A DNA stretch of 64,000 bases. Origin: an uncultured Verrucomicrobiota bacterium (lineage in GTDB: Bacteria; Verrucomicrobiota; Verrucomicrobiia; Limisphaerales; UBA9464). How positions within the stretch are numbered: the stretch's first letter is position 1; every line of letters starts with the position of its first letter. Location of the stretch: the NCBI GenBank assembly GCA_903842505.1, contig CAIMMI010000283.1:2568-66567 (forward strand), in the 5' to 3' direction. The notes below the pieces were generated by a model. That model was not told the DNA's origin and made no database searches. It was given only the letters and a program-made list of their open reading frames with translations. Position numbers and translations under genes: made by a program. Below, one piece after another: positions 12,437 through 59,300 of the stretch.

Positions 12437-12677
12437 ACCGTTGGCTACCGGTTGCAACACCTCCGGCGTTGGGGCGGATCTCCCGCAGAGGCGCGGCGGC
12501 GCAGAGGTCTGGTCTGGTTCAAGGGATGAGGAGGGTGGGAGGCGGGTTGGTGCCGACCGGGGCGAGGCGCTCGTGCCCCAACGGGGCAGACGATGAAAGC
12601 CCGGGGTGGAACCCCGGGAACCGGGTCCGCGCAATGTTCGACGTGCCCTGAAAGGGCACACGGATCTGGCGGCGGGG

Positions 12678-12752
12678 GCGAGTAGGAGTACGAGTACGAG
12701 AGCGAGGGGGAAGTCGGAGCTTGAAACTTGGGGCTTCAAACTTGGAACTCCC
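12678..12752. repeat. mosaic intergenic repeat: GAGTAC hexamer array plus GCTTGAAACTTGG / GCTTCAAACTTGG units
   Basis: gcgagtaggagtacgagtacgagagcgag ... gcttgaaacttggggcttcaaacttggaactccc. This closely resembles the right arm of the 20832-21004 element (gagtacgagtacgagtacgaagcgaagccggcttgaaacctgg). Confidence 0.7.
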
Positions 12753-12768
12753 TCCCCATGAAACCGGG

Positions 12769-14001
12769 GTGGATGGACGAAGGAAGCCGGTCGGTGAATT
12801 GCGCGTGAAGGCAGGACCCAAGAGTGCGGGCGCGGTGTGGCAGGTGTTCCGGGCGTTCCTGTGGCTCGGGCTGACCTCGTTTGGCGGGCCGGTTGCGCAC
12901 ATCGGGTATTTCCGTAGGGAGTTCGTGGTGCGACGCGGGTGGCTTACGGAGGATCAGTACGCGGCTTGGGTCGGCCTGTGCCAGTTCCTGCCGGGACCGG
13001 CCAGCAGCCAGTTGGGATTTTGCATCGGCATGTTGCGTGCCGGGGTGGCGGGGGCGATCGGGGCGTTCGTCGGGTTTACGCTGCCTTCGGCGTTGATGAT
13101 GGCGGGACTGGGGATCCTGCTGGGAGGGCCGGGTGCCGGCGGGATCGACGGCGTGGTGCACGGACTCAAGTTGGTCGCAGTGGCGGTGGTGGGTCAGGGC
13201 GTGTGGGCGATGGGACGGCGGCTGTGTCCGGATCCGACGCGTTGGGTGCTGGCCGCGGGTGTGGCGGCGGGAAGCCTCTTGCTGAAGCCCGCGTGGGTGC
13301 AGCCGATGCTGGTGGTGGTGTCGGCGTTGGTGGGGTGGAAGCTTTGCCCGGGGACGGAGTCGGCCGGCGTGGAGGCGGGGGCGGTGCCGTATGGGCGTCG
13401 GGGTGGTGTGTGGTGTCTGGGGTTGTTCGGAGGGTTGGTGTTTGGGTTGCCGTGGGTCGCGTCGGGCGTGGGTGGGTCGTTGGAGCCGGCGTCGGGATTC
13501 GTGCGGGCGGGGGCGATGGTTTTCGGAGGTGGGCACGTGGTGCTGCCGCTGCTGGAGGAAGCGGTGGTGCAGCCGGGCTGGATCCGTCGGGACGAATTCC
13601 TGACAGGTTACGGTGCGGCGCAGGCGGTGCCGGGGCCGATGTTCACGCTCGCGGCGTTCCTGGGGGCGTTGATGCCGGGGACGAGCGGCGGGTGGTTTGG
13701 GGCGCTCGTGGGTGTGCTGTCGATCTTCGCACCGGGGTTGCTCCTGGTCGCTGGGGTGCTGCCGTTCTGGCATCGGCTCGGGCGCGACTCGTCGATGACG
13801 CGGATGATGTCGGGTGTGAACGCGGGCGTGGTGGGTCTGCTGGCGGCGGCGCTGGTGGATCCGGTGTGGATCGGGGCGGTGCAGCGATGGCCGGATGCGG
13901 TGGTCGCCCTCGCCGGGTTGGCGGCGTTGCTGTGGGGGCGGGTCCCGGTGATCGCGGTGGTGGGCGGCTGTGTGGCGGCCGGGTGGATCACGCGGGGTTG
14001 A
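12769..14001 (+). CDS. chrA: chromate transporter (ChrA/CHR family)
   Basis: FLWLGLTSFGGPVAHIGYFRREFV...CQFLPGPASSQLGF, with a second half carrying VFGGGHVVLPLL...AQAVPGPMFT. This is the duplicated CHR domain. The start is uncertain: GTG 12769 is chosen because 12678-12752 is occupied by a repeat element. Confidence 0.85.
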   Translation: MDGRRKPVGELRVKAGPKSAGAVWQVFRAFLWLGLTSFGGPVAHIGYFRREFVVRRGWLTEDQYAAWVGLCQFLPGPASSQLGFCIGMLRAGVAGAIGAFVGFTLPSALMMAGLGILLGGPGAGGIDGVVHGLKLVAVAVVGQGVWAMGRRLCPDPTRWVLAAGVAAGSLLLKPAWVQPMLVVVSALVGWKLCPGTESAGVEAGAVPYGRRGGVWCLGLFGGLVFGLPWVASGVGGSLEPASGFVRAGAMVFGGGHVVLPLLEEAVVQPGWIRRDEFLTGYGAAQAVPGPMFTLAAFLGALMPGTSGGWFGALVGVLSIFAPGLLLVAGVLPFWHRLGRDSSMTRMMSGVNAGVVGLLAAALVDPVWIGAVQRWPDAVVALAGLAALLWGRVPVIAVVGGCVAAGWITRG

Positions 14002-14106
14002 GGACGCGGAATTTGGGGACGGTTCACGCGGAGCCGCGGAGAACGCGGAGCGGACCAAGATGGCGAAGTCTCGATCGCTGCGGGTGCGGCGGGGAGAGGC
14101 GATGCC

Positions 14107-18302: not shown

Positions 18303-18355
18303 GGGGACAGCCTAGCGCCCGGGAGCGGGGGTTCCCAGCGGGGAGTTGGGCCAGA

Positions 18356-18410
18356 GAAGTTCCCAGTTTCCAGACTCCAGTACCCTGTAGGCTGGGGTGC
18401 CCTCACCCGG
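18356..18410 (+). repeat. diverged copy of the dispersed intergenic repeat (GAAGTTCCCAGTTTCCAGAC...GGGGTGCCCTCAC)
   Basis: gaagttcccagtttccagactccag...ggctggggtgccctcacccgg aligns with 21186-21250 (gaagttcccagtcgccagtttccagaccccag...ggtggggcgagtgtcctcacgagccgg). Confidence 0.6.
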
Positions 18411-18459
18411 CGTTGCTCGTCAACCGCCGCGTGGGGCACGCGGCCTCCAAAAACGGGCC

Positions 18460-18480
18460 TGGCAACTGGCAACTGGCAAC
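18460..18480. repeat. perfect heptamer tandem (TGGCAAC)x3, 7 nt downstream of the rex stop
   Basis: tggcaactggcaactggcaac read directly from the sequence. Confidence 0.9.
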
Positions 18481-18486
18481 TCTCCT

Positions 18487-19125: not shown

Positions 19126-19177
19126 GCAAGCTAGGGAACGTGGGGCGGGTGGGCAAAGCAGGAAGTGGGGAGCAGGA

Positions 19178-19208
19178 GTCGCCAGTTGCCAGAAGCCAGT
19201 TTCCAGAG
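19178..19208. repeat. GCCAGTT-type heptamer array, in inverted orientation relative to 18460-18480, upstream of rex
   Basis: gtcgccagttgccagaagccagtttccagag. It contains gccagttgccag, the exact reverse complement of ctggcaactggc at 18459-18470. Confidence 0.8.
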
Positions 19209-20236: not shown

Positions 20237-20812
20237 ATGAAGATTCTCCAGGCTCCGTTCACCGAGGAAATGATGCGGTCACTCCGCGTCGGCGACGAGG
20301 TCGCCATCAACGGCATCGTGTTCACCGGCCGTGACGCGGTGCACAAGTACCTCCATGAAGGCGGCGAGTTACCGCCGGGGGTGAACCTCCGCGACGGGAT
20401 CATCTATCACTGCGGTCCGGTGGTGATGCAGGAACCCAACGGCGAGTGGAAGGTGACGGCGGCCGGGCCGACGACTTCCATCCGCGAGGAACCGTATCAG
20501 GGGCAGATCATCCGCGACTTCGGTGTGCGGGGCGTGATCGGCAAGGGTGGCATGGGAGACCGGACGCTCGCAGCCTGTGCGGCGCACGGATGCGTGTACC
20601 TCCATGCGATCGGGGGCGCGGCGCAGGTGTTGGCGGAGTGCGTGAAGAAGGTGCGGAACGTGTACCTGAAGGAGAAGTTCGGGTCGCCGGAAGCGATCTG
20701 GGAGTTGGAGGTGGAGAACTTCCCGGCGGTGGTGACGATGGATTCGCACGGCGGCAGCCTGCATCAGGAAGTGCTGAAGCACAGTCAGGCGGCGTTGGCG
20801 GAGAGGGTTTGA
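20237..20812 (+). CDS. class I (Fe-S) fumarate/tartrate hydro-lyase, beta subunit
   Basis: GDEVAINGIVFTGRDAVHK, IYHCGPV and IGKGGM match the beta (C-terminal domain) subunit. It lies immediately after the alpha subunit. Confidence 0.85.
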   Translation: MKILQAPFTEEMMRSLRVGDEVAINGIVFTGRDAVHKYLHEGGELPPGVNLRDGIIYHCGPVVMQEPNGEWKVTAAGPTTSIREEPYQGQIIRDFGVRGVIGKGGMGDRTLAACAAHGCVYLHAIGGAAQVLAECVKKVRNVYLKEKFGSPEAIWELEVENFPAVVTMDSHGGSLHQEVLKHSQAALAERV

Positions 20813-20831
20813 AGCGGGCGCAGAAGTTCAT

Positions 20832-21004
20832 AGTTTTCAGTTTCAAGTTTCAAGTTGGGCTCGTACTCCTACTCGTACTCGAGCCCATGAAGCCTCTCAG
20901 CAGACGAGAGGCCTTCTCCGGATCGAGTACGAGTACCGCCCTGCGGGCTGAGTACGAGTACGAGTACGAAGCGAAGCCGGCTTGAAACCTGGATCTGAAA
21001 ACTC
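20832..21004. repeat. 173-bp element made of two ~55-nt imperfect inverted arms (heptamer GTTTCAAG units plus hexamer GTACTC/GAGTAC arrays) around a ~63-nt centre; MITE/REP-like
   Basis: Left arm: agttttcagtttcaagtttcaagttgggctcgtactcctactcgtactcgagc. Reverse complement of the right arm: gagttttcagatccaggtttcaagccggcttcgcttcgtactcgtactcgtactcag. The centre holds the hairpin gcctctc-agcagac-gagaggc. Confidence 0.8.
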
Positions 21005-21185
21005 GCGACGTCAGCAACGACCCCCTCTGCGTCCCTGCGCCCCTGCGGGAAAAACCCCCGCCCTCACCGCGTGCCACCTCCCGACGCGGTCCTCCCGCAG
21101 AGACGCTGGGACGCAGGGAAAACCACTCCAGACAAAGCTCCTCCGCGCCTCTGCGGGAAAAATCCCCAACCCACGAGCCGGGCGT

Positions 21186-21292
21186 GAAGTTCCCAGTCGC
21201 CAGTTTCCAGACCCCAGCTCCAAAGGGTGGGGCGAGTGTCCTCACGAGCCGGGTGGGGAGTTCCGAGTTTCAAGATTCAAGTTTCAAGGCCC
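21186..21292 (+). repeat. dispersed intergenic repeat, full composite copy (CCAGTTTCCAG module plus GTGGGGCGAGTGTCCTCACGAGCC core plus GTTTCAAG array)
   Basis: 21227-21290 matches the reverse complement of 28848-28908 at roughly 90% over ~62 nt: gtggggcgagtgtcctcacgagccg..tggggagt.cc..gtttcaagattcaagtttcaag. Confidence 0.85.
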
Positions 21293-21335
21293 CCTGGGCC
21301 CCGCCTCCTGACGTCGACGGCTACGGGGTCGGAGG

Positions 21336-21920
21336 CTACGGGGTCGGAGGCGGGTAGGCGGCGGATTCCCGGATGGCGGCGGCGACGTGCGGAGGGAGCA
21401 GGTGGTCGACGGGGCGGCCTGTCCGGATGCGCTCGCGGATCTCGGACGAAGAGACTGCCAACGGCCAACCGCGGAGCGGGCGGACCCGGAAAGGTTCGGG
21501 TGCCGGCACCGGCGGGTTCCCCGGGCGGGGGATCATGATGAACTCGACCGTCCGGGCGAGCGTATCGGCCTCGCGCCATTGGTTCAGGGTGGGAACGTGG
21601 TCGGCACCGATCAGCCAGCAGAGTTCGGCACCGGGATGACGGGCGGCGAACTCGCGGACGGTGTCGATGGTGTAGCTGGTTCCACCGCGGCGGAGTTCCA
21701 GTTCGTCGACGGCGAAGTCCGGGCGGCCGGCCAGGGCGATGCGAAGCCACCGGAGGCGGAGCGCATCGTGGGCCGGCGCTGTACCCGGCTTGAAGGGGGA
21801 ACGGGCCGCTGGAATGAAGACGATGCGGTCGAGGTTCATCTCCTCGCAGGCGGCCTCGGCCACGAGGAGGTGGCCGAGGTGCACGGGATCGAACGAGCCG
21901 CCGTAGAGACCGATGCGCAT
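21336..21920 (-). CDS. nadD: nicotinate-nucleotide adenylyltransferase
   Basis: MRIGLYGGSFDPVHLGHL carries the (H/T)xGH nucleotidyltransferase motif. The start is at ATG 21920, 7 nt after the cstA stop. Confidence 0.9.
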   Translation of the reverse strand: MRIGLYGGSFDPVHLGHLLVAEAACEEMNLDRIVFIPAARSPFKPGTAPAHDALRLRWLRIALAGRPDFAVDELELRRGGTSYTIDTVREFAARHPGAELCWLIGADHVPTLNQWREADTLARTVEFIMIPRPGNPPVPAPEPFRVRPLRGWPLAVSSSEIRERIRTGRPVDHLLPPHVAAAIRESAAYPPPTP

Positions 21921-24297: not shown

Positions 24298-24337
24298 GTG
24301 AGTGTCACGGAGCCCGTGGTGAGTTTGAAGTTTGAAG
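24298..24337 (+). repeat. diverged copy of the dispersed repeat core, upstream of cstA
   Basis: gtgagtgtcacggagcccgtggtgagtttgaagtttgaag compared with ggcgagtgtcctcacgagccgggtggggagttccgagtttcaagattcaag. Confidence 0.5.
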
Positions 24338-28712: not shown

Positions 28713-28806
28713 TGCCTGTCCGGATCCTCCGTCAAAAACCCGATGGTTACGGAACATCGCCCCGCCGGTCCACCTGGTGGGGCGAGACTTTGTCGAACCG
28801 CCTCAG

Positions 28807-28908
28807 AGTTTGAAGTTTTCAGTTTCAAGTTTGAAGCGGCAGCCGGGCTTGAAACTTGAATCTTGAAACCTGGGACTCCCCAGCGGCTCGTGAGGACACT
28901 CGCCCCAC
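28807..28908 (-). repeat. dispersed intergenic repeat, inverted-orientation copy, with an extra GTTTCAAG/CTTGAAAC hairpin
   Basis: agtttgaagttttcagtttcaagtttgaagc-ggcagccgg-gcttgaaacttgaatcttgaaac forms an imperfect hairpin. It is followed by ctgggactccccagcggctcgtgaggacactcgccccac, the reverse complement of the 21227-21262 core. Confidence 0.85.
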
Positions 28909-37016: not shown

Positions 37017-39941
37017 ATGACCAACGCGTCCCGTCTCCTCAGCGTTCTCCTCGTGTGCGCATCTGCCCAGGGAGTGATGAGCCAAAGTCCCGGCCAGGTG
37101 GCTGAAGAAGAGGCCATTCGTCGGCAGGAAAAGACCATCGTTCTGCGCGATGCCCTGAATTCCGCCAACCAGCAGCAGAAGCAGGGTGATCTTGGCTCCG
37201 CTGCCAAGACCTATGAACAGGCTTGGGGTCTGGTGGAGCAGCTTGGTTCCTCGGTCGAGGCTGAGCGCACCCAGACTGTCCAGGGGTTCACCTCCGTCTA
37301 CATGGAACTTGTTGTCCGCTCCCTCAAGGACGGCGATTACAAGGAGGCGGATGCCCGTTTGAAGCGCGTCCTGGCCGTGGATCCCACCCACACCCTCGCC
37401 AAGCGCCTGAAGCGTGAGAACGATGAGCGCCTCGAGGAGATGAAGGGGCGGGCGCCGTCGGATAAGGCTCTGGAGTCGGTCGGCGACAAGCGCAAGGAGA
37501 TGATCGAGGCCGGTACCCACGAGCATAACGGCCAGCTTTTCTTCGAACTCGGCAAGCTTGAGGAGGCTGCTGCTGAATTCAAGGAAGCCTTGAAAATCAA
37601 CCCGGACAGCCGGGCAGCTCACCACTACCTCGCGGCCATCGAAGAACGGCAGTATTCCCGTGCGGCAGCCAAGCGCGAGTTGGCTTCCAAGGGACGCCTG
37701 GTTGAAGTGGAGGTCAACTGGGCCACCGAACTGCCCAAGCTTCCCGAGGCCAATCCGTACGCCACCACCAACTCGGTGCGCACGAGCCGCGGTCGGCAGG
37801 TGATCTACAACAAGCTGGATCGGATCCGGCTCAATGAGCTGAAGTTCGAAGGCCTTCCCCTCAGCGAGGTCGTCAAGACTCTTGAGGAGCAGTCCCGGCT
37901 CCGGGACCCGGACAAGAAGGGCATCAATTTCATCATCTCGTCCTCGGTGGACATTCCTCAGGCTCAGGCTGGTGTCGGAGGCATCGATCCGACGACTGGA
38001 CTTCCTGCTCCTGCCGCTCCGGTGGAGCCTCTGGATGTCTCGGCCGTAAACGTGCGCCTCGTTCCCGGACTGAAGGATGTCCGCTTGGCCGACGCTTTGG
38101 ACGCGATCACCAAGGTCGCTGAGAAGCCCATCAAGGTCTCCGTCGAGGACTACGCGGTCATCTTCACGCAACGCCTTCCGCAGGCGGAGCAACTCTTCAC
38201 GCGCCGTTATCGAGTCAATCCCAACACCTTCTATCAAGGCTTGGAGTCCGTCATTGGCTTGCCCCTGCCGATTGACAGCCAAGGCGGTGGTGGCGGCGGC
38301 GCCGGTGGTGGTGGTGGTGGTGGTGGCGCTGGCGGCGGTGCCGGCGGCGGCATGGGCGGTCAGGGTGGCGGCATGTTCACGATTCCCCGCGTCGAGGTCA
38401 CCATGGGTGGCGGCGGCATGGGCGGTGGCATGGGCGGCGGCATGGGCGGCGGCATGGGCGGCGGCATGGGCGGCGGCATGGGCGGCGGCATGGGCGGCGG
38501 CATGGGCGGCGGCGGCATGGGCGGCGGCATGGGTGGTGGTGGCGGCGGTGGAAGCATTGGCTTCGGCCCCGGCATCGGTGGTGTGACCCGGACGCAGTAC
38601 ATGGTCAGCATCCAGGACATCGTCCGGCAGTTCTTCATTGCTTGCGGTGTCAACTTCCCCCTCAGCCCGCTTCAACTCCAACAGGGCGGTGGCCTGGGTG
38701 GTGGTGGACTCGGCGGCGGTCAGGGCCAGTTCGGCGGTGGTCTCGGGGGCCAGGGCCAACTCGGTGGCCAGCAGTCGCAGGACACGAAGGCCATGTTCTT
38801 CAACGACCGAACGGGTATCCTGTTCGTTCGTGCGACCCTCAGCGATCTCGACATCATCGAGCAGGCCATCCAGGTCCTCAATGTCGCGCCGCCCCAGGTG
38901 CAGATCGAAGCCAAGTTCGCCGAAGTCACCCAGCAGGACGGCCGGGCCATCGGCTTCGACTGGTATCTGGGCAACTTCCTGATGAACAACGGGTCGATGG
39001 GTCTTGGTGGTGGCACCGCCCCCAGCGTGAACACGCCGGGTGGAGCGACCGAACCCAGGACCTCCCTGGCCAACAGCGAAGGCACCTTCCCGGGCAATGT
39101 CGCCTCCGGAACTGCCATCCCTGCCGGCGCCAGCGACGGATTGCTGACCTCGGGTGTCCGCAATCAGGACGCCAACCAGTCGGCCATCCCCACGATCGCC
39201 ACCTTCAGCGGCATCCTCACGGATCCTCAGTTCCGCCTCGTCATCCGCGCTCTGGAGCAGCGCGATGGTGTTGATCTGCTCTCCGCTCCGCGCGTTACGA
39301 CCCTCTCGGGCCGGCAGGCGCAGATCTCCGTCGTCGATGCCCGTCGGATCGTGCTCGACGTGAACCAGAACCAGGGCGGCCAGCAGGGCGGCGGGGCCGG
39401 GGTGGTCCAACCGACCGGTGTCGGTCAGGTCATCCAACAGAACCCGATCGGGTTCGGTTACACCACGGCGAGCCTGCCGTTCGGTCCGACGTTGGACGTC
39501 ATTCCTTACGTCTCTGCCGACGACGTCTCCATCCAGATGTCGATCATCCCGGCCTACACCGAGTTCATCGGATATGACAATCCGGGTGACTTTGTGCCCG
39601 TCCAAACGGGCCCGAATGTGGCGCCGGTCCGCGCTCGCTTGCCGTTGCCGCGCATCCGCCTCCGTCAGGTGACGACGTCGGCCATCGTCTGGGACGGCCA
39701 GACCGTGGTTCTCGGTGGCTTGATCGCAGAGGACGTGAAGAAGACCCGTGACAAGGTCCCCGTGCTCGGTGACATCCCGTTCGTGGGTCGTTTGTTCCGG
39801 TCCGAGGCTTCGCTCAACGCCAAGAAGAACCTCGTGATCTTCGTGACGCCGACGATCATCGATCCCGCCGGCAAGCGCATCCATCCGGATGACTCTCTGC
39901 CGTTCGACCCGAACACCGTCCCGACTCAGGCAGCCCACTGA
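37017..39941 (+). CDS. pilQ: secretin (type II/III secretion / PilQ family) with TPR-like N-terminal region and a Gly/Met-rich insert
   Basis: Signal peptide MTNASRLLSVLLVCASAQG. The C-terminal secretin core includes PRVTTLSGRQAQISVV, LDVIPYVSADD, VVLGGLI, VPVLGDIPFVGRLF and NLVIFVTPTII. Confidence 0.88.
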   Translation: MTNASRLLSVLLVCASAQGVMSQSPGQVAEEEAIRRQEKTIVLRDALNSANQQQKQGDLGSAAKTYEQAWGLVEQLGSSVEAERTQTVQGFTSVYMELVVRSLKDGDYKEADARLKRVLAVDPTHTLAKRLKRENDERLEEMKGRAPSDKALESVGDKRKEMIEAGTHEHNGQLFFELGKLEEAAAEFKEALKINPDSRAAHHYLAAIEERQYSRAAAKRELASKGRLVEVEVNWATELPKLPEANPYATTNSVRTSRGRQVIYNKLDRIRLNELKFEGLPLSEVVKTLEEQSRLRDPDKKGINFIISSSVDIPQAQAGVGGIDPTTGLPAPAAPVEPLDVSAVNVRLVPGLKDVRLADALDAITKVAEKPIKVSVEDYAVIFTQRLPQAEQLFTRRYRVNPNTFYQGLESVIGLPLPIDSQGGGGGGAGGGGGGGGAGGGAGGGMGGQGGGMFTIPRVEVTMGGGGMGGGMGGGMGGGMGGGMGGGMGGGMGGGMGGGGMGGGMGGGGGGGSIGFGPGIGGVTRTQYMVSIQDIVRQFFIACGVNFPLSPLQLQQGGGLGGGGLGGGQGQFGGGLGGQGQLGGQQSQDTKAMFFNDRTGILFVRATLSDLDIIEQAIQVLNVAPPQVQIEAKFAEVTQQDGRAIGFDWYLGNFLMNNGSMGLGGGTAPSVNTPGGATEPRTSLANSEGTFPGNVASGTAIPAGASDGLLTSGVRNQDANQSAIPTIATFSGILTDPQFRLVIRALEQRDGVDLLSAPRVTTLSGRQAQISVVDARRIVLDVNQNQGGQQGGGAGVVQPTGVGQVIQQNPIGFGYTTASLPFGPTLDVIPYVSADDVSIQMSIIPAYTEFIGYDNPGDFVPVQTGPNVAPVRARLPLPRIRLRQVTTSAIVWDGQTVVLGGLIAEDVKKTRDKVPVLGDIPFVGRLFRSEASLNAKKNLVIFVTPTIIDPAGKRIHPDDSLPFDPNTVPTQAAH
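38403..38550 (+). repeat. in-frame 12-bp tandem repeat (GGCATGGGCGGC)n encoding 11 consecutive M-G3-4 units inside the secretin gene
   Basis: The DNA reads catgggcggcggcatgggcggcggcatgggcggcgg... The protein reads MGGGGMGGGMGGGMGGGMGGGMGGGMGGGMGGGMGGGGMGGGMGGGGGGG. Confidence 0.95.
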
Positions 39942-54880: not shown

Positions 54881-55207
54881 CGGCGGCGGCCTGCGTCGTC
54901 CACGACGGTTTCTGGCGCTGAATCTTTGGGCCTCGATGCTTACCGTGGGGTTGAAGCTGGAAATGGTTCACGCGGAGACGTGGAGGGAGCGGATGGGGGC
55001 GCGCCGAACGTGGTTGGAGGTCGGGGTGGTGGGAAGCACCCTGCGGTTGGTGTTGGGGAAGCCGAAGGAGTGGATCGTGAGCGGCGCTTGTGGGGGGGCG
55101 ACACGGGGTCCGTTCGGCTGGGTGATCTGGGCCATCTGCGGATCCATGAACTGCGGATTCCAAGACCCAGGCACCCGTCCTCGGTCGGAGGCCAGCTCCC
55201 CCTGGAA

Positions 55208-56155: not shown

Positions 56156-56308
56156 CTGCCTCGTGACCTCGTCAGCTACGAGCGTAGCAGACGACGTGAG
56201 GAGGCTGTGGAAGAAGTCCCGAGTCTGAAGATTCAAGCCTGCCTGCATCCCTGCCTCGTGACCTCGTCAGCTACGAGCGTAGCAGACGACGTGAGGAGGC
56301 TGTGGAAG
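56156..56308. repeat. two identical 58-bp internally palindromic units (56156-56213 and 56251-56308) separated by a 37-bp spacer
   Basis: The unit is ctgcctcgtgacctcgtcagctacgagcgtagcagacgacgtgaggaggctgtggaag, and the two copies are identical by eye. The spacer aagtcccgagtctgaagattcaagcctgcctgcatcc carries the GAAGATTCAAG family motif. Confidence 0.9.
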
Positions 56309-56367
56309 GAGTTGCATCGCCCTTGCCCGCATTTTGGGGCCGCCGGGTGAGGGCACCCGGCCTTCAG

Positions 56368-59300
56368 CTACTTCCCAAGCGACTGGATCAGGCGGCGGAT
56401 CTCGGCGATGCGGGCGGAGGCGGTGCGTTTGGTGAGGCGCGGGAACTGGCCGCCGATGGTGACGAGGTCGTTGTTGCGGGTGAGCTTGAGCTTGCCCTCG
56501 GTCACCTCGATGCCCGTGACGCGGTGCGAGGCGGCGAAGATGCGGAGTTCGGCGAGTTCGAGGAGGAGGTCGACCGGGGGAGGCAGCGGTCCGAAGCGAT
56601 CGCGGAGTTCGCGTCGGAGGGTGTCGAGGCCCGCCTTGTCGGCGAGTTGGGCGAGTTTGCGGTGGACCTCGATGCGCTGGGCCGGTTCGCGGATGTAGTC
56701 GAGCGGCAGGAAGGCGGGTTCGCGGGTGGCGGGGCCCTCGGCTTCGTCGGTGCGTTTCTTGCGGCCCCGTCCAGACCGGGTGGTTGAATCGTCGTCTTCA
56801 TCGTCGTCGGTGCTCCAGACGTCCGAGTCGCGGGGCACTCGGATGGTGAGGCGTGGGCGATTGGGATCGAGGACGGTATCCGACGGGGCGGAGGGAATGG
56901 GGGTGGCCTCGGCTGGATTGAGGGCGAGGAAATCGATGCGGGTACGGACGTCGACGCGAGGCTTGGGAGACTCGCCCTTGAGCGTGGAGATGCTCTGACC
57001 GAGAAGTTGGCAGTAGAGGTCGAATCCGACGGCGGTGATGTGGCCGGACTGCTGGGCGCCGAGGAGGTTGCCGGCGCCGCGGATCTCCAGGTCGCGCATG
57101 GCGATCTTGAAGCCGGATCCGAGCGCGGAGTACTGCTTGATGGCCGACATGCGCTTGCGGGCTTCCGTGAGCAGCTGGGCGTGACGCGGGAGCAGGAGGT
57201 AGGCGTAGGCCTGATGCTTGTAGCGTCCGACGCGACCGCGGAGTTGGTAGAGTTCGGAAAGGCCGAAGCGGTCGGCGCGGTCGATGATGATGGTGTTGGC
57301 GTTGGGGATATCGAGGCCGCTTTCGATGATGGTGGTGGAGATCAGGACATCGGCCTCGCCATTGACGAAGCGCGTCATGACGCGTTCGAGGTCGTCGGGA
57401 TCCATTTGGCCGTGGCCGACGAGGACGCGGGCCTCGGGCAGGAGGGAGCGGACGCGGAGGGCGAGGGCTTCGATGGACGAGACGCGGTTGTGGAGGAAGT
57501 AGACCTGACCGCCGCGGTTGATCTCACGCTGGATGGCGTCGCGGATCAGACGTTCGTCGTAATTGGTGACGACGGTCTCGACGGGGAGACGGTCCTGAGG
57601 CGGCGTCTCCAGGGTGGAGAGGTCGCGGGCGCCGGTGAGGGCGAGGTAGAGGGTGCGCGGGATGGGGGTGGCGGAGAGGGTGAGGACGTCGATGGTCTGC
57701 CGGAGGAGTTTGAACTGTTCCTTGTGGCGGACGCCGAACTTCTGTTCCTCGTCGACGATGACGAGGCCGAGGTCCTTGAACTGGACGTCGGACGAGACGA
57801 TGCGGTGGGTTCCGATGACGATGTCGACGGTCCCGTTGGCGGCGGCCTCGAGGACGGCGCGCTGTTGCTTGGGAGTGCGGAAGCGGGAGAGGAGTTCGAT
57901 GCGCACGGGGTATTCGGCCATGCGATCGCGGAAATTGTTGTAGTGCTGTTGGGCGAGGACGGTGGTGGGGACGAGGATGGCGACCTGTTTTCCTCCGAGC
58001 ACGGCCTTGAAGGCGGCGCGGATGGCGACCTCGGTCTTGCCGAAGCCGACGTCGCCGCAGAGCAGGCGGTCCATGGGCTTGGGGGCCTCCATGTCGGTCT
58101 TGGCGGCGGCGATGGCGCGGAGTTGGTCGGGGGTTTCCTCGTATTCGAAGGAGGCCTCGAACTCGCGTTGCCAGGGGGCGTCGGAAGGGAAAGCGTGACC
58201 GGGTTTCGTGGCGCGGGTGGCCTGGATGGTGAGGAGTTCGGCGGCGAGATCGCGTACGGCGCGCTGGGCCTGTTCCTTGGCCTTGGTCCAGCGGTTGCCG
58301 CCGAGGGTGGAGAGTTGGGGGCGGGCCTTGCCGGCGCCAACGTACTTCGAGACGAGGTGGGCCTCGTTGACGGGAACGTAGAGGCGGGGTGGTTCGGTGG
58401 CGGAACCGGAAGGGGCGTACTCGATGACGAGGCATTCGTCGCCGGTGGATTCGTTGGAAGTGGCCTCGCCGCGGCGTCGATTCTGGGGCTGAAGCGTCTT
58501 CAGTCCGCGGAATATTCCGATGCCATTCTCCAGGTGGACGACGTAGTCGCCTTCCTCGAACTCCGTGAAGTCGACCTCGAAGACGGATCGGACGGCGGAG
58601 GCGTGGCGGGACTTGAGTCGGCGTGGGCGCTGGACCTTGTAGCGGCCATAGATCTCGGCGTCGGTGACGACCACGAGACGGGCATCAGGAACGAGGAATC
58701 CGCGATTGAGGACGCCGATGTGGCAATGAGGGGCGGGCAACGGGAGCCCGAATTCGGTCCAGAGTTCCTGGAATCGCTGACGTTCGCCTTCGTGGCCGCA
58801 GAACACGTGGACTTCGTGTTCCTGACGGGTCCATCGATGGAGTTGCTGAAAGAACTCGCGGCGCTGGGCTTCGGCGACTTGCGGGTCGGGGAGGGTGGCG
58901 CCGATGGGGCGGTAGGCATCGAGGCCCGGGAAACCGGAAGGGGCGGAATCGGGGAGGTCGGTATCGAGGCCTTCCGTGAGACTGAGTCGGCGCAGGCCGC
59001 GACGGGAGGTCTCGGCAAGGACGTCATCCCAATCGATGGAAAATCGGTCGCCGGGTGGCACCTGCTGGCGGTAGCGGAGGGACTGGTCGAGGAGGGCGTC
59101 CGGTTCGGAGAGGAGGAGGAGGGTGTCCTTGGGGAGGAAGTCGAGGAGGGAACCGAGTTTGGGTTCGGGGTGCGGAGCGGCGGTGGGGGCGTCGTCGTGG
59201 GTTGAGGCGCGTCGGGAGGGCTTGAGAAGGCCGAGTTCGCCGGCAGGTGGGATGACGATTTCGGAAATGGTCTCGCGGGAGATCTGGGCTTGGGGGTCGA

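Follow-up and report, generated by a model that had tools for sequence, protein, structure and literature searches.

A strain-variable cluster of hairpin repeats, probably of REP and REPIN type, between the convergent fumB and nadD genes of a Limisphaerales bacterium

What occupies the long spacer between two convergent genes in an uncultured freshwater bacterium of the order Limisphaerales (Verrucomicrobiota)? In the 64-kb stretch of DNA analyzed here (hereafter the window), the gene for the fumarate hydratase beta subunit (fumB; 20237..20812, plus strand, PF05683) and a nadD-like nucleotidyltransferase gene (21336..21920, minus strand, PF01467) converge on a gene-free gap at positions 20813-21335. 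With fumB ending at 20812 and the nadD-like gene ending on the minus strand at 21336, this gap measures 523 bp, one less than the 524 bp given in an earlier inspection of the letters alone (hereafter the sequence-only reading). Three other convergent pairs are found in the 20 kb with gene calls. One pair overlaps, and the other two have spacers of 105 bp and 86 bp. This agrees with the earlier statement that such pairs are separated by less than 120 bp or overlap. The 523-bp spacer is therefore unusually long.

We consider it probable that the gap is a mosaic of non-coding hairpin repeats of the repetitive extragenic palindrome (REP) and REP doublet (REPIN) type, similar to bacterial interspersed mosaic elements (BIMEs), residing in a permissive spacer between convergent 3′ ends. 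The building blocks are a GTGG-tagged REP-like stem-loop (hereafter the unit), imperfect tandem arrays of 6-, 7-, and 8-nt repeats, and short unique cores. The arrays come as inverted pairs and thereby supply long stems. Gain, loss, and remodeling of the gap are evident among closely related strains, as described below.

No gene was recognized in the gap. Stop-free frames of 109-131 codons traverse it, and the three longest of these matched no family in Pfam, in agreement with the earlier view that the gap holds no credible open reading frame (ORF). A search for tRNA and tmRNA genes returned none in the gap, and at the Rfam gathering score no family was detected in the window or in 12 other loci that carry the unit. 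When the gap was scanned with a permissive E-value, only sub-threshold microRNA-precursor models appeared, and these weak matches arise because the hairpins are long.

Long and short alleles among sister strains

The same intergenic region was compared in sister strains, which are contigs of independent assemblies found by exact look-up of the FumB protein (L-numbers designate compared contig stretches or loci outside the window). The sister contigs are 98-99.9% identical to the window across 17-20 kb, and they carry a gap of either 523 bp or 82-90 bp. The 523-bp gap is found in L001 and L003, and two further assemblies have the same gene spacing. The short gap (L002, 90 bp; L004, 82 bp) contains a single heptamer array. 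The FumB protein is identical in long-gap and short-gap strains, and the flanks differ at only 0-2 positions per 200 bp. Near-identical strains carry either form, and the long form is therefore an indel or cassette that segregates among them, best described as a replacement. In the short allele, the TGA stop codon is followed by CGGG, an array of AGTTCCC, AGATGCC (one copy in one short-gap strain, two in the other), AGTGACC, and AGAAGAC, then CGATCGA and the shared CCCGCCTCCTGACGTCGACGG. Relative to this arrangement, the long allele has the whole segment between the stop codon and CCCGCC (CCCGCCTCC) replaced. The existence of sister strains without the cluster indicates that it is not needed for viability. 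Thus, the cluster is dispensable, fast-changing DNA and not a hidden gene, and for annotation the gap should be labeled as a repeat cluster, with no hunt for a missing gene.

It is barely conceivable that the long gap arose as an error of assembly or represents a gene, decayed or unannotated. The 523-bp sequence or its spacing recurs in at least four independent assemblies, the sequence is made of repeats, and sister strains lack the region. Repeat clusters of this kind do break assemblies, as in L003, where a run of N falls exactly at 18353-18477, and the stop-free frames noted above cross the gap, but these frames have no Pfam match.

The spacer interrupted in L003 is a second variable site, located 2.4 kb from the gap between rlmN-like and rex-like genes. 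In the window, this cassette (18353..18482) comprises an AG-heptamer array, a GTAG-tagged REP pair (GTAGGCTGGGGTGCCCTCACCCGGC ...), and a CTGGCAA array. At 18353-18477, the window and L002 share one array-core-array element, whereas L001 and L004 carry an unrelated one with identical borders. The CTGGCAA array has 3 copies in the window and 10 in L002. All four possible combinations of 18353 cassette type with long or short gap occur, which implies recombination or recurrence. Cassettes and array copy number could therefore serve as fine-scale strain markers for uncultured freshwater Verrucomicrobia.

Orthologous spacers in other species offer no direct comparison, because relatives with 86-93% FumB identity have no nadD gene downstream of fumB. 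The fumB-downstream spacers of related species contain other REP-like families with variable unit number, and their hairpins have the same TCCT loop as the unit (GGCGACG-TCCT-CGTCGCC). For example, L087 (3577-3801) and L088 (3577-3762) encode identical FumB proteins, 90% identical to that of the window, and differ by one 39-nt REP-like unit plus spacer. This difference is a unit-level gain or loss downstream of fumB.

The sister strains also differ at 12445-12477 and 13052-13911. L002 has ~1.1 kb extra, with a gene giving a faint match to SBP_bac_10, and ~860 bp are missing from L004, in which a chromate transporter gene is truncated.

Anatomy of the gap and dispersal of its modules

The left part of the gap is a nested long hairpin of 172 bp (20832..21003), recognized by its inverted repeats and its DNA fold (-50.5 kcal/mol, z = -8.4). 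The long-inverted-repeat element described earlier at 20832-21004 is present, with borders corrected to 20832-21003. From outside to inside, it consists of heptamer arms, hexamer arms (CTCGTA / GAGTAC), and an inner hairpin at ~20886-20912, with a side hairpin, GCCCTGCGGGC, at ~20938-20948. The arms pair 20832-20863 with 20972-21003 and 20861-20880 with 20950-20969. The left outer arm is formed by an AG-phased imperfect heptamer array (AGTTCAT AGTTTTC AGTTTCA AGTTTCA AG; 20825..20856, plus strand) and the right outer arm by a CT-phased array (CTTGAAA CCTGGAT CTGAAAA CT; 20980..21003, plus strand), the latter also being 84% complementary to 21264-21288. Heptamer arms had been noticed before as GTTTCAAG units, but the phase was wrong, and the correct units are 7-nt repeats phased on AG, such as AGTTTCA. 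The sequence GAGTACGAGTAC occurs 8 times versus 0.07 expected. Farther inside lie the hexamer array CTCGTACTCCTACTCGTACTCG (20860..20881, plus strand), bracketed by GGGCTCG...CGAGCCC, and the GAGTAC arrays to which it is complementary, at 20925-20936 and 20950-20969 with CCGCCCTGCGGGCT in between (20925..20969, plus strand).

A second hairpin module, of CTGCG type, is found at 21021..21125 (z = -5.2). Its arms (21027-21050 and 21093-21116) are 88% complementary and are built as 8-nt arrays (CTGCGNCC), with CTGCGTCC CTGCGCCC CTGCGGGA opposite TCCCGCAG AGACGCTG GGACGCAG. The left arm terminates in GGGAAAAACCCCC, and an inner hairpin, ACCGCGT...ACGCGGT, is located at 21066-21090. The CTCTGCG/CGCAGAG-type modules with a downstream partner, as pointed out previously, correspond to the hairpin at 21027-21116 and to a partial direct copy of its left arm, CTCCGCGCCTCTGCGGGAAAAATCCCC (21140..21167, plus strand), 108 bp downstream of the first copy. 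Over 23 nt, the two copies (21037-21059 and 21145-21167) are 91% identical. The inverted pair tgcgtccc / gggacgca, also noted previously, is contained in this same hairpin.

The segment at 21172-21296 is a 71-bp tandem duplication, in which a truncated unit plus array is followed by a full unit plus array (21172-21210 versus 21243-21281, 77% identity). The first copy contains the truncated unit tail CACGAGCCGGG and then the AG-phased array AGTTCCC AGTCGCC AGTTTCC AGACCCC AGCTCCA (21172..21221, plus strand). The second includes the dispersed composite repeat at 21226-21296, whose unit combines a GTGG tag with the imperfect palindrome GGCGA-GTG-TCCT-CAC-GAGCC (21227..21250, plus strand) and whose AG-phased array, AGTTCCG AGTTTCA AGATTCA AGTTTCA AG (21259..21288, plus strand), starts 8 nt past the unit. 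The sequence-only reading had taken 21186-21292 for a full copy of the composite. It is instead part of this tandem duplication, and it amounts to half of the complete composite at 28779-28908. Beyond the duplication are a module common to the long and short alleles, CCCGCCTCCTGACGTCGACGGCTACGG (21297..21326, plus strand), and a 15-nt tandem repeat, GGCTACGGGGTCGGA (21319..21351, 2.2 copies), within which the nadD stop codon lies.

Every module type in the gap is dispersed, in this window or in other genomes. They have copies at unrelated loci, and uniqueness to this place, which would have counted against the sequence-only reading, is not observed. Nine AG/CT-phased heptamer arrays occur in the window, versus 0.73 expected; eight lie in gaps between called genes, and the ninth (56215) falls outside the stretch with gene calls. 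In composites, the array begins 7-8 nt past the unit (21259-21288, 28848-28876, L006, and L024), and an identical AGTTCCGAGTTTCAAGATTCAAGTTTCAAG array adjoins the unit in another Limisphaerales genome. Arm motifs of the long hairpin are present at 12679-12757 and in L024, L058, L063, and L091, and related hexamer arrays are found at 12679-12757 and in L024, L058, and L091. The GAGTAC stretch at 20924-20968 is 95.6% identical to L063 4406-4450, which comes from another Limisphaerales genome, and hexamer (GAGTAC; GGNNTC) and 8-nt arrays also accompany units in another genome of this order. Copies of the CTGCG-module 23-mer were found in 7 metagenome contigs, at unrelated loci, and further copies of the module at 21297-21326 are present in L021, L038, and L039 and in the alternative 18353-18477 cassette of L001/L004.

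Two GAGTAC arrays, at 12677-12696 and 20858-20877, are flanked by the stem base of the unit (GGCGA...GAGTA; on the minus strand, TACGA...GAGCC). The sequences suggest that slippage between the two CGAG repeats of a unit may have given rise to the hexamer arrays.

Variable arrays near genes raise the question of whether this is a contingency (phase-variation) locus, in which heptamer copy number switches expression of a neighboring gene. Heptamer and 15-mer copy numbers do vary between near-identical strains (the 15-nt repeat GGCTACGGGGTCGGA has 2.2 copies in the window and L004 and 3 in L002), and arrays are located just upstream of fumA (19177-19206) and cstA (24322-24337). However, the arrays of the gap lie downstream of both genes, and their units are imperfect, which slows slippage. 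Moreover, the 15-mer copies follow the nadD stop codon, and each unit carries, on the minus strand, an in-frame TAG within GTAG, so that the nadD protein is unchanged by copy number. We therefore find this explanation very improbable.

The folding of the gap bears on another alternative. Compared with shuffled sequence, the whole gap folds with exceptional stability on both strands (z = -5.6 for the plus strand and -4.9 for the minus strand). One might accordingly propose a functional structured RNA, kept for its function as a bidirectional terminator, as a 3′-UTR (untranslated region) stabilizer array for fumB and nadD, or as small RNAs. The location between convergent 3′ ends would fit, and the nadD strand carries two GGGG(A/G)TTTTTCCCGCAG motifs and one terminator-like match. 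Yet a scan of the gap for promoter and terminator consensus sequences found nothing exceeding shuffles, and its single weak intrinsic-terminator site (minus strand, 21182-21165) compares with 0.8 expected in shuffles. The region is missing from strains whose flanking genes are near-identical, neither the gap nor the 12 other unit-bearing loci contain an Rfam family, and the modules occur in both orientations, upstream and downstream of genes. We consider this explanation rather unlikely, and the suggestion in the sequence-only reading of a cluster of structured RNAs found no positive support. If the gap is a mosaic of hairpin repeats, as we favor, its stable hairpins probably serve as 3′-end barriers or stabilizers for both converging transcripts, by analogy with the REPs of Escherichia coli.

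Other tandem repeats are present elsewhere in the window. At 56156-56312, in an apparent intergenic spacer, two 62-nt direct repeats that are 98% identical and 95 nt apart flank AGTCCCGAGTCTGAAGATTCAAG heptamers. The 8-nt arrays at 14020-14050 and 54966-54993, GGTTCACGCGGAG(N)CGCGGAG, have a motif that also appears in OZ260084.1 (L017). A long GGC / GGCGGCGGCATG tandem repeat at 38283-38548 (12-nt unit, ~10 copies, 93% matches) is probably a Gly/Met-rich coding repeat.

The REP-like unit and its possible mobility

The stem of the unit GGCGA-GTG-TCCT-CAC-GAGCC contains a tandem G.A / A.G mismatch. An exact second copy is located at 28884-28908 on the minus strand, where it forms the inverted end of a complete, REPIN-like composite (28779..28908) that lies outside the gap and is conserved in five of five strains. 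This composite is arranged in the order unit (GTGG GGCGA GAC TTT GTC GAACC), heptamer array, loop, inverse array, and inverted unit. Complete REPIN-type doublets are also found at L024 3481-3624 and at many other loci. In another Limisphaerales genome, the composite consists of the unit, 7 nt, and AGTTCCGAGTTTCAAGATTCAAGTTTCAAG, and L024 adds the loop, inverse array, and inverted unit. The gap itself holds one full and one truncated unit in direct orientation, which represent tandem-duplicated half-doublets.

The exact 21-nt core of the unit is present in at least 80 stretches of GTDB genomes from Verrucomicrobiota (Limisphaerales, Lentisphaeria, and Kiritimatiellia), ~37 of which belong to one 7.9-Mb Limisphaerales chromosome. 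Among the matches listed, the other metagenome-assembled genomes (MAGs) bearing the core are labeled Verrucomicrobia subdivision 3, Lentisphaeraceae, Victivallaceae, and Kiritimatiellia. A few core-bearing contigs sit in MAGs labeled as other phyla and may be mis-binned. The tag is GTGG in Limisphaerales copies and GGAG in those of Lentisphaeria and Victivallales, the latter tag being absent from the listing in PMC3733652. A full-text literature search with a 15-nt core in either orientation found no paper. The kind of element is already known, and the particular unit was found neither in Rfam nor in the searchable literature.

At most loci, the unit is accompanied, 15-100 nt away, by an inverted partner, whose top stem differs yet is complementary within itself, with GTG/CAC, GAC/GTC, ACG/CGT, and GCG/CGC as the variants seen in doublets. 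Of 218 matches to the flank pattern that do not carry GTG, 60 show full complementarity in the 3-nt stem, versus 1.6% expected. In an alignment chosen by the flanks alone, 28 cells are changed on both sides, compared with 7.9 in shuffles (0 of 500 reach this number), and 94.6% of top-stem cells are paired, versus at most 45% when the partner is slid. These results make clear that the top stem of the unit co-varies. Units fall within long stop-free frames at a frequency of 0.33, versus 0.64 for random positions, although the calling of such frames is noisy in a GC-rich genome.

Several unit-bearing loci have unusual arrangements. In a Kiritimatiellae MAG, the unit stands in direct tandem at L074 1869-1915 and L076 664-747, with periods of 26 nt and 63 nt, and the L076 tandem superficially resembles a two-repeat mini-array. 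L057 (2368-2496) and L078 (~335-470) share a near-perfect palindrome of ~130 nt that is bounded by two inverted units. The MAG labels of these two loci (“uncultured bacterium” and Armatimonadota) would indicate either a phylum-crossing mobile hairpin or mis-binned contigs. In Victivallaceae/Victivallales (L011, L029, L034, L044, L046, L048, L062, L067, L068, and L073), ~70 nt to the left of the doublet are also conserved between copies, which implies that the doublet in these MAGs belongs to a longer repeated element. Classical GTAG-tagged REP hairpins of the GTAGGCCGGGTGCCCTCACCCGGC type are found in the window at 18386-18412 (GTAGGCTGGGGTGCCCTCACCCGGC), 18430-18455, and 56343-56368, and this family is also present in Limisphaerales OZ260084.1 (L012, L017, L026, and L082).

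How might such a mosaic arise? We infer that the unit family is mobile. Hairpin units would be copied in trans on single-stranded DNA, and the likeliest agent would be a Y1/HUH transposase of the REP-associated tyrosine transposase (RAYT) type, as in other REPINs, which would recognize single-strand hairpins. New copies may land in or beside existing hairpins and would so produce nested palindromes. Local tandem duplication could add copies, with the 71-bp and 108-bp repeats of the gap as visible examples, slipped-strand changes could alter array copy number, and recombination could remove or swap whole cassettes. The sequence-only reading had proposed an insertion hotspot for small non-autonomous elements. 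The dispersal of the elements and the presence/absence polymorphism of the gap agree with this proposal, and the insertion event itself would have to be deduced from them.

Several observations weigh against the reading of the gap as a mosaic of mobile REP/REPIN-type hairpins. Target-site duplications are found neither at the borders of 20832-21003 and 28779-28908 nor at those of the segment specific to the long allele, and the two alleles are related by replacement and not by a simple insertion, with no clean pair of empty and filled sites. A tblastn search with 8 RAYT/Y1 proteins (from PMC3733652) gave no match either in the window or across ~560 kb of loci that bear the unit, and it is for this reason that the mobility of the family is put forward by inference. 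Homologues of the Opitutus terrae RAYT Oter_2468 in other Verrucomicrobia are flanked by GTAG REPs of different sequence and not by the unit. Moreover, a pattern scan with simulated background, used in place of a covariance model because MAFFT had put the gap of units with a 9-nt middle inside the stem, identified only three credible units in the window, and neither the long hairpin at 20832-21003 nor the CTGCG module has a canonical unit, so that the REPIN-like label for these two draws on shared arm motifs only.

When ORFs of at least 90 amino acids were clustered in 80 loci, no protein family recurred beside the unit. Two candidates for an associated protein were set aside. An 800-bp segment in L061 that is bounded by inverted units encodes a small membrane-like protein and no transposase. 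In L067, the genes beside the Victivallaceae unit copies looked, by eye, like a nucleotidyltransferase gene and argB and unlike a transposase gene.

These points lend some weight to the possibility that no transposition is involved and that the mosaic arose locally, through replication slippage, through tandem duplication, and through gene conversion or homologous recombination among short dispersed repeats. The long and short forms would then be old alleles that recombination has reshuffled within the population. The replacement between fixed borders without target-site duplications would be expected, as would the array copy-number changes seen directly between strains, the occurrence of all four haplotypes for two cassettes separated by 2.4 kb, the 71-bp and 108-bp tandem duplications within the gap, and the finding of no transposase in the window or in unit-bearing loci. 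However, slippage and conversion cannot put an identical hairpin of 21-25 nt at dozens of unrelated loci in several classes. In addition, because the unit stem co-varies, a structure-specific copying or binding agent is indicated. On balance, we regard an origin without transposition as unlikely, though deserving of serious consideration, and retain the view of the gap as a REP/REPIN-type mosaic.

A more speculative idea, to which we give little credence, is that the GTGG hairpin and the phased heptamer arrays are not decaying selfish DNA but parts of one system that is actively maintained throughout the phylum. This idea draws on the identity of the 21-nt core from Limisphaerales to Lentisphaeria and Kiritimatiellia, on the co-variation of the stem while the G.A mismatch stays fixed, and on the exact borders that unrelated array-core-array cassettes share in sister strains. 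These observations would fit a conserved structure-specific enzyme, of the host or domesticated, that exchanges hairpin cassettes at fixed docking sites by gene ends. If this were true, the heptamer repeats of cyanobacteria, long without an explanation, could arise as by-products of this chemistry or serve as its substrates.

Comparison with known repeat systems

Miniature inverted-repeat transposable elements (MITEs) share with the modules of the gap their non-coding nature, a length of 100-200 bp, long inverted arms, many copies, and presence/absence polymorphism. In contrast to MITEs, the elements described here lack target-site duplications and a parental insertion sequence whose ends match, and their arms consist of tandem arrays, where MITEs have unique terminal repeats.

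The arrays taken alone resemble the short tandemly repeated repetitive (STRR) sequences of cyanobacteria and the TAACTGA repeats, which are likewise intergenic tandem heptamers of variable copy number with no known function. The cyanobacterial repeats STRR1 (CCCCAGT) and STRR3 (CAACAGT) have the same AGT phase as AGTTTCA and AGTTCCC. Unlike the STRRs, which belong to heterocystous cyanobacteria, the arrays described here belong to a high-GC Verrucomicrobium, their units are imperfect, with each heptamer differing from its neighbor, and they stand as inverted pairs that form hairpin arms and are physically joined to REP-like units. The likeness to STRRs is thus one of resemblance only. TAACTGA heptamer repeats are known from Beggiatoaceae, Cyanobacteria, and Bacteroidetes, and their function is unknown (PMC4679880).

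In their overall organization, the BIMEs of E. coli and the mosaic clusters of Neisseria are similar to the gap. They too have several repeat types per spacer, are often found between convergent genes, and vary among strains. The sequence families are different, and the likeness leaves out the linker motifs and the sites for integration host factor (IHF) and gyrase that define BIMEs.

The closest parallel is offered by REPs and REPINs. REPs are stem-loops with a GTAG tag. They join head-to-head or tail-to-tail as dimers and also make up clusters “reiterated in tandem,” and some families reside in multiple species (Di Nocera et al. 2013, PMC3733652). The verrucomicrobium O. terrae is highly enriched in REPs, and one of its families, GTAG-20, has GTGG in place of GTAG (PMC3733652). 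A REPIN consists of two inverted REPs plus a spacer and is thought to be mobilized by a RAYT (PMC3337134, PMC3116915). The RAYT gene (Y1/HUH transposase, PF01797) is usually present once and has the same REPs on its flanks. As in the GTAG-superfamily systems of Pseudomonas, E. coli, Stenotrophomonas, and O. terrae, the unit is a short imperfect palindrome, within the 20-40 nt typical of REPs, and its inverted doublets, with partners 15-100 nt from each other, fold into a single long hairpin. It also has a putative counterpart of the unpaired tetranucleotide tag at one end and many copies across genomes, which are probably mostly extragenic. Tandem-reiterated clusters and gain or loss between strains are likewise common to both, and true GTAG REPs are present in the window at 18386-18412. 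Unlike those systems, the unit described here is tied to no RAYT, its stem has a fixed tandem G.A mismatch, and the doublet spacer and upper stem are built of phased heptamer arrays. Furthermore, the 21-nt core is the same in several classes of the phylum, whereas many REP families are confined to a single species. Near-identical wild strains that are distinguished by entire REP/REPIN-type cassettes and by the copy number of their arrays constitute a natural case for study, and a REP-like core that is letter-identical across classes and coupled to STRR-like arrays offers a way to study both hairpin recognition and the origin of such arrays.

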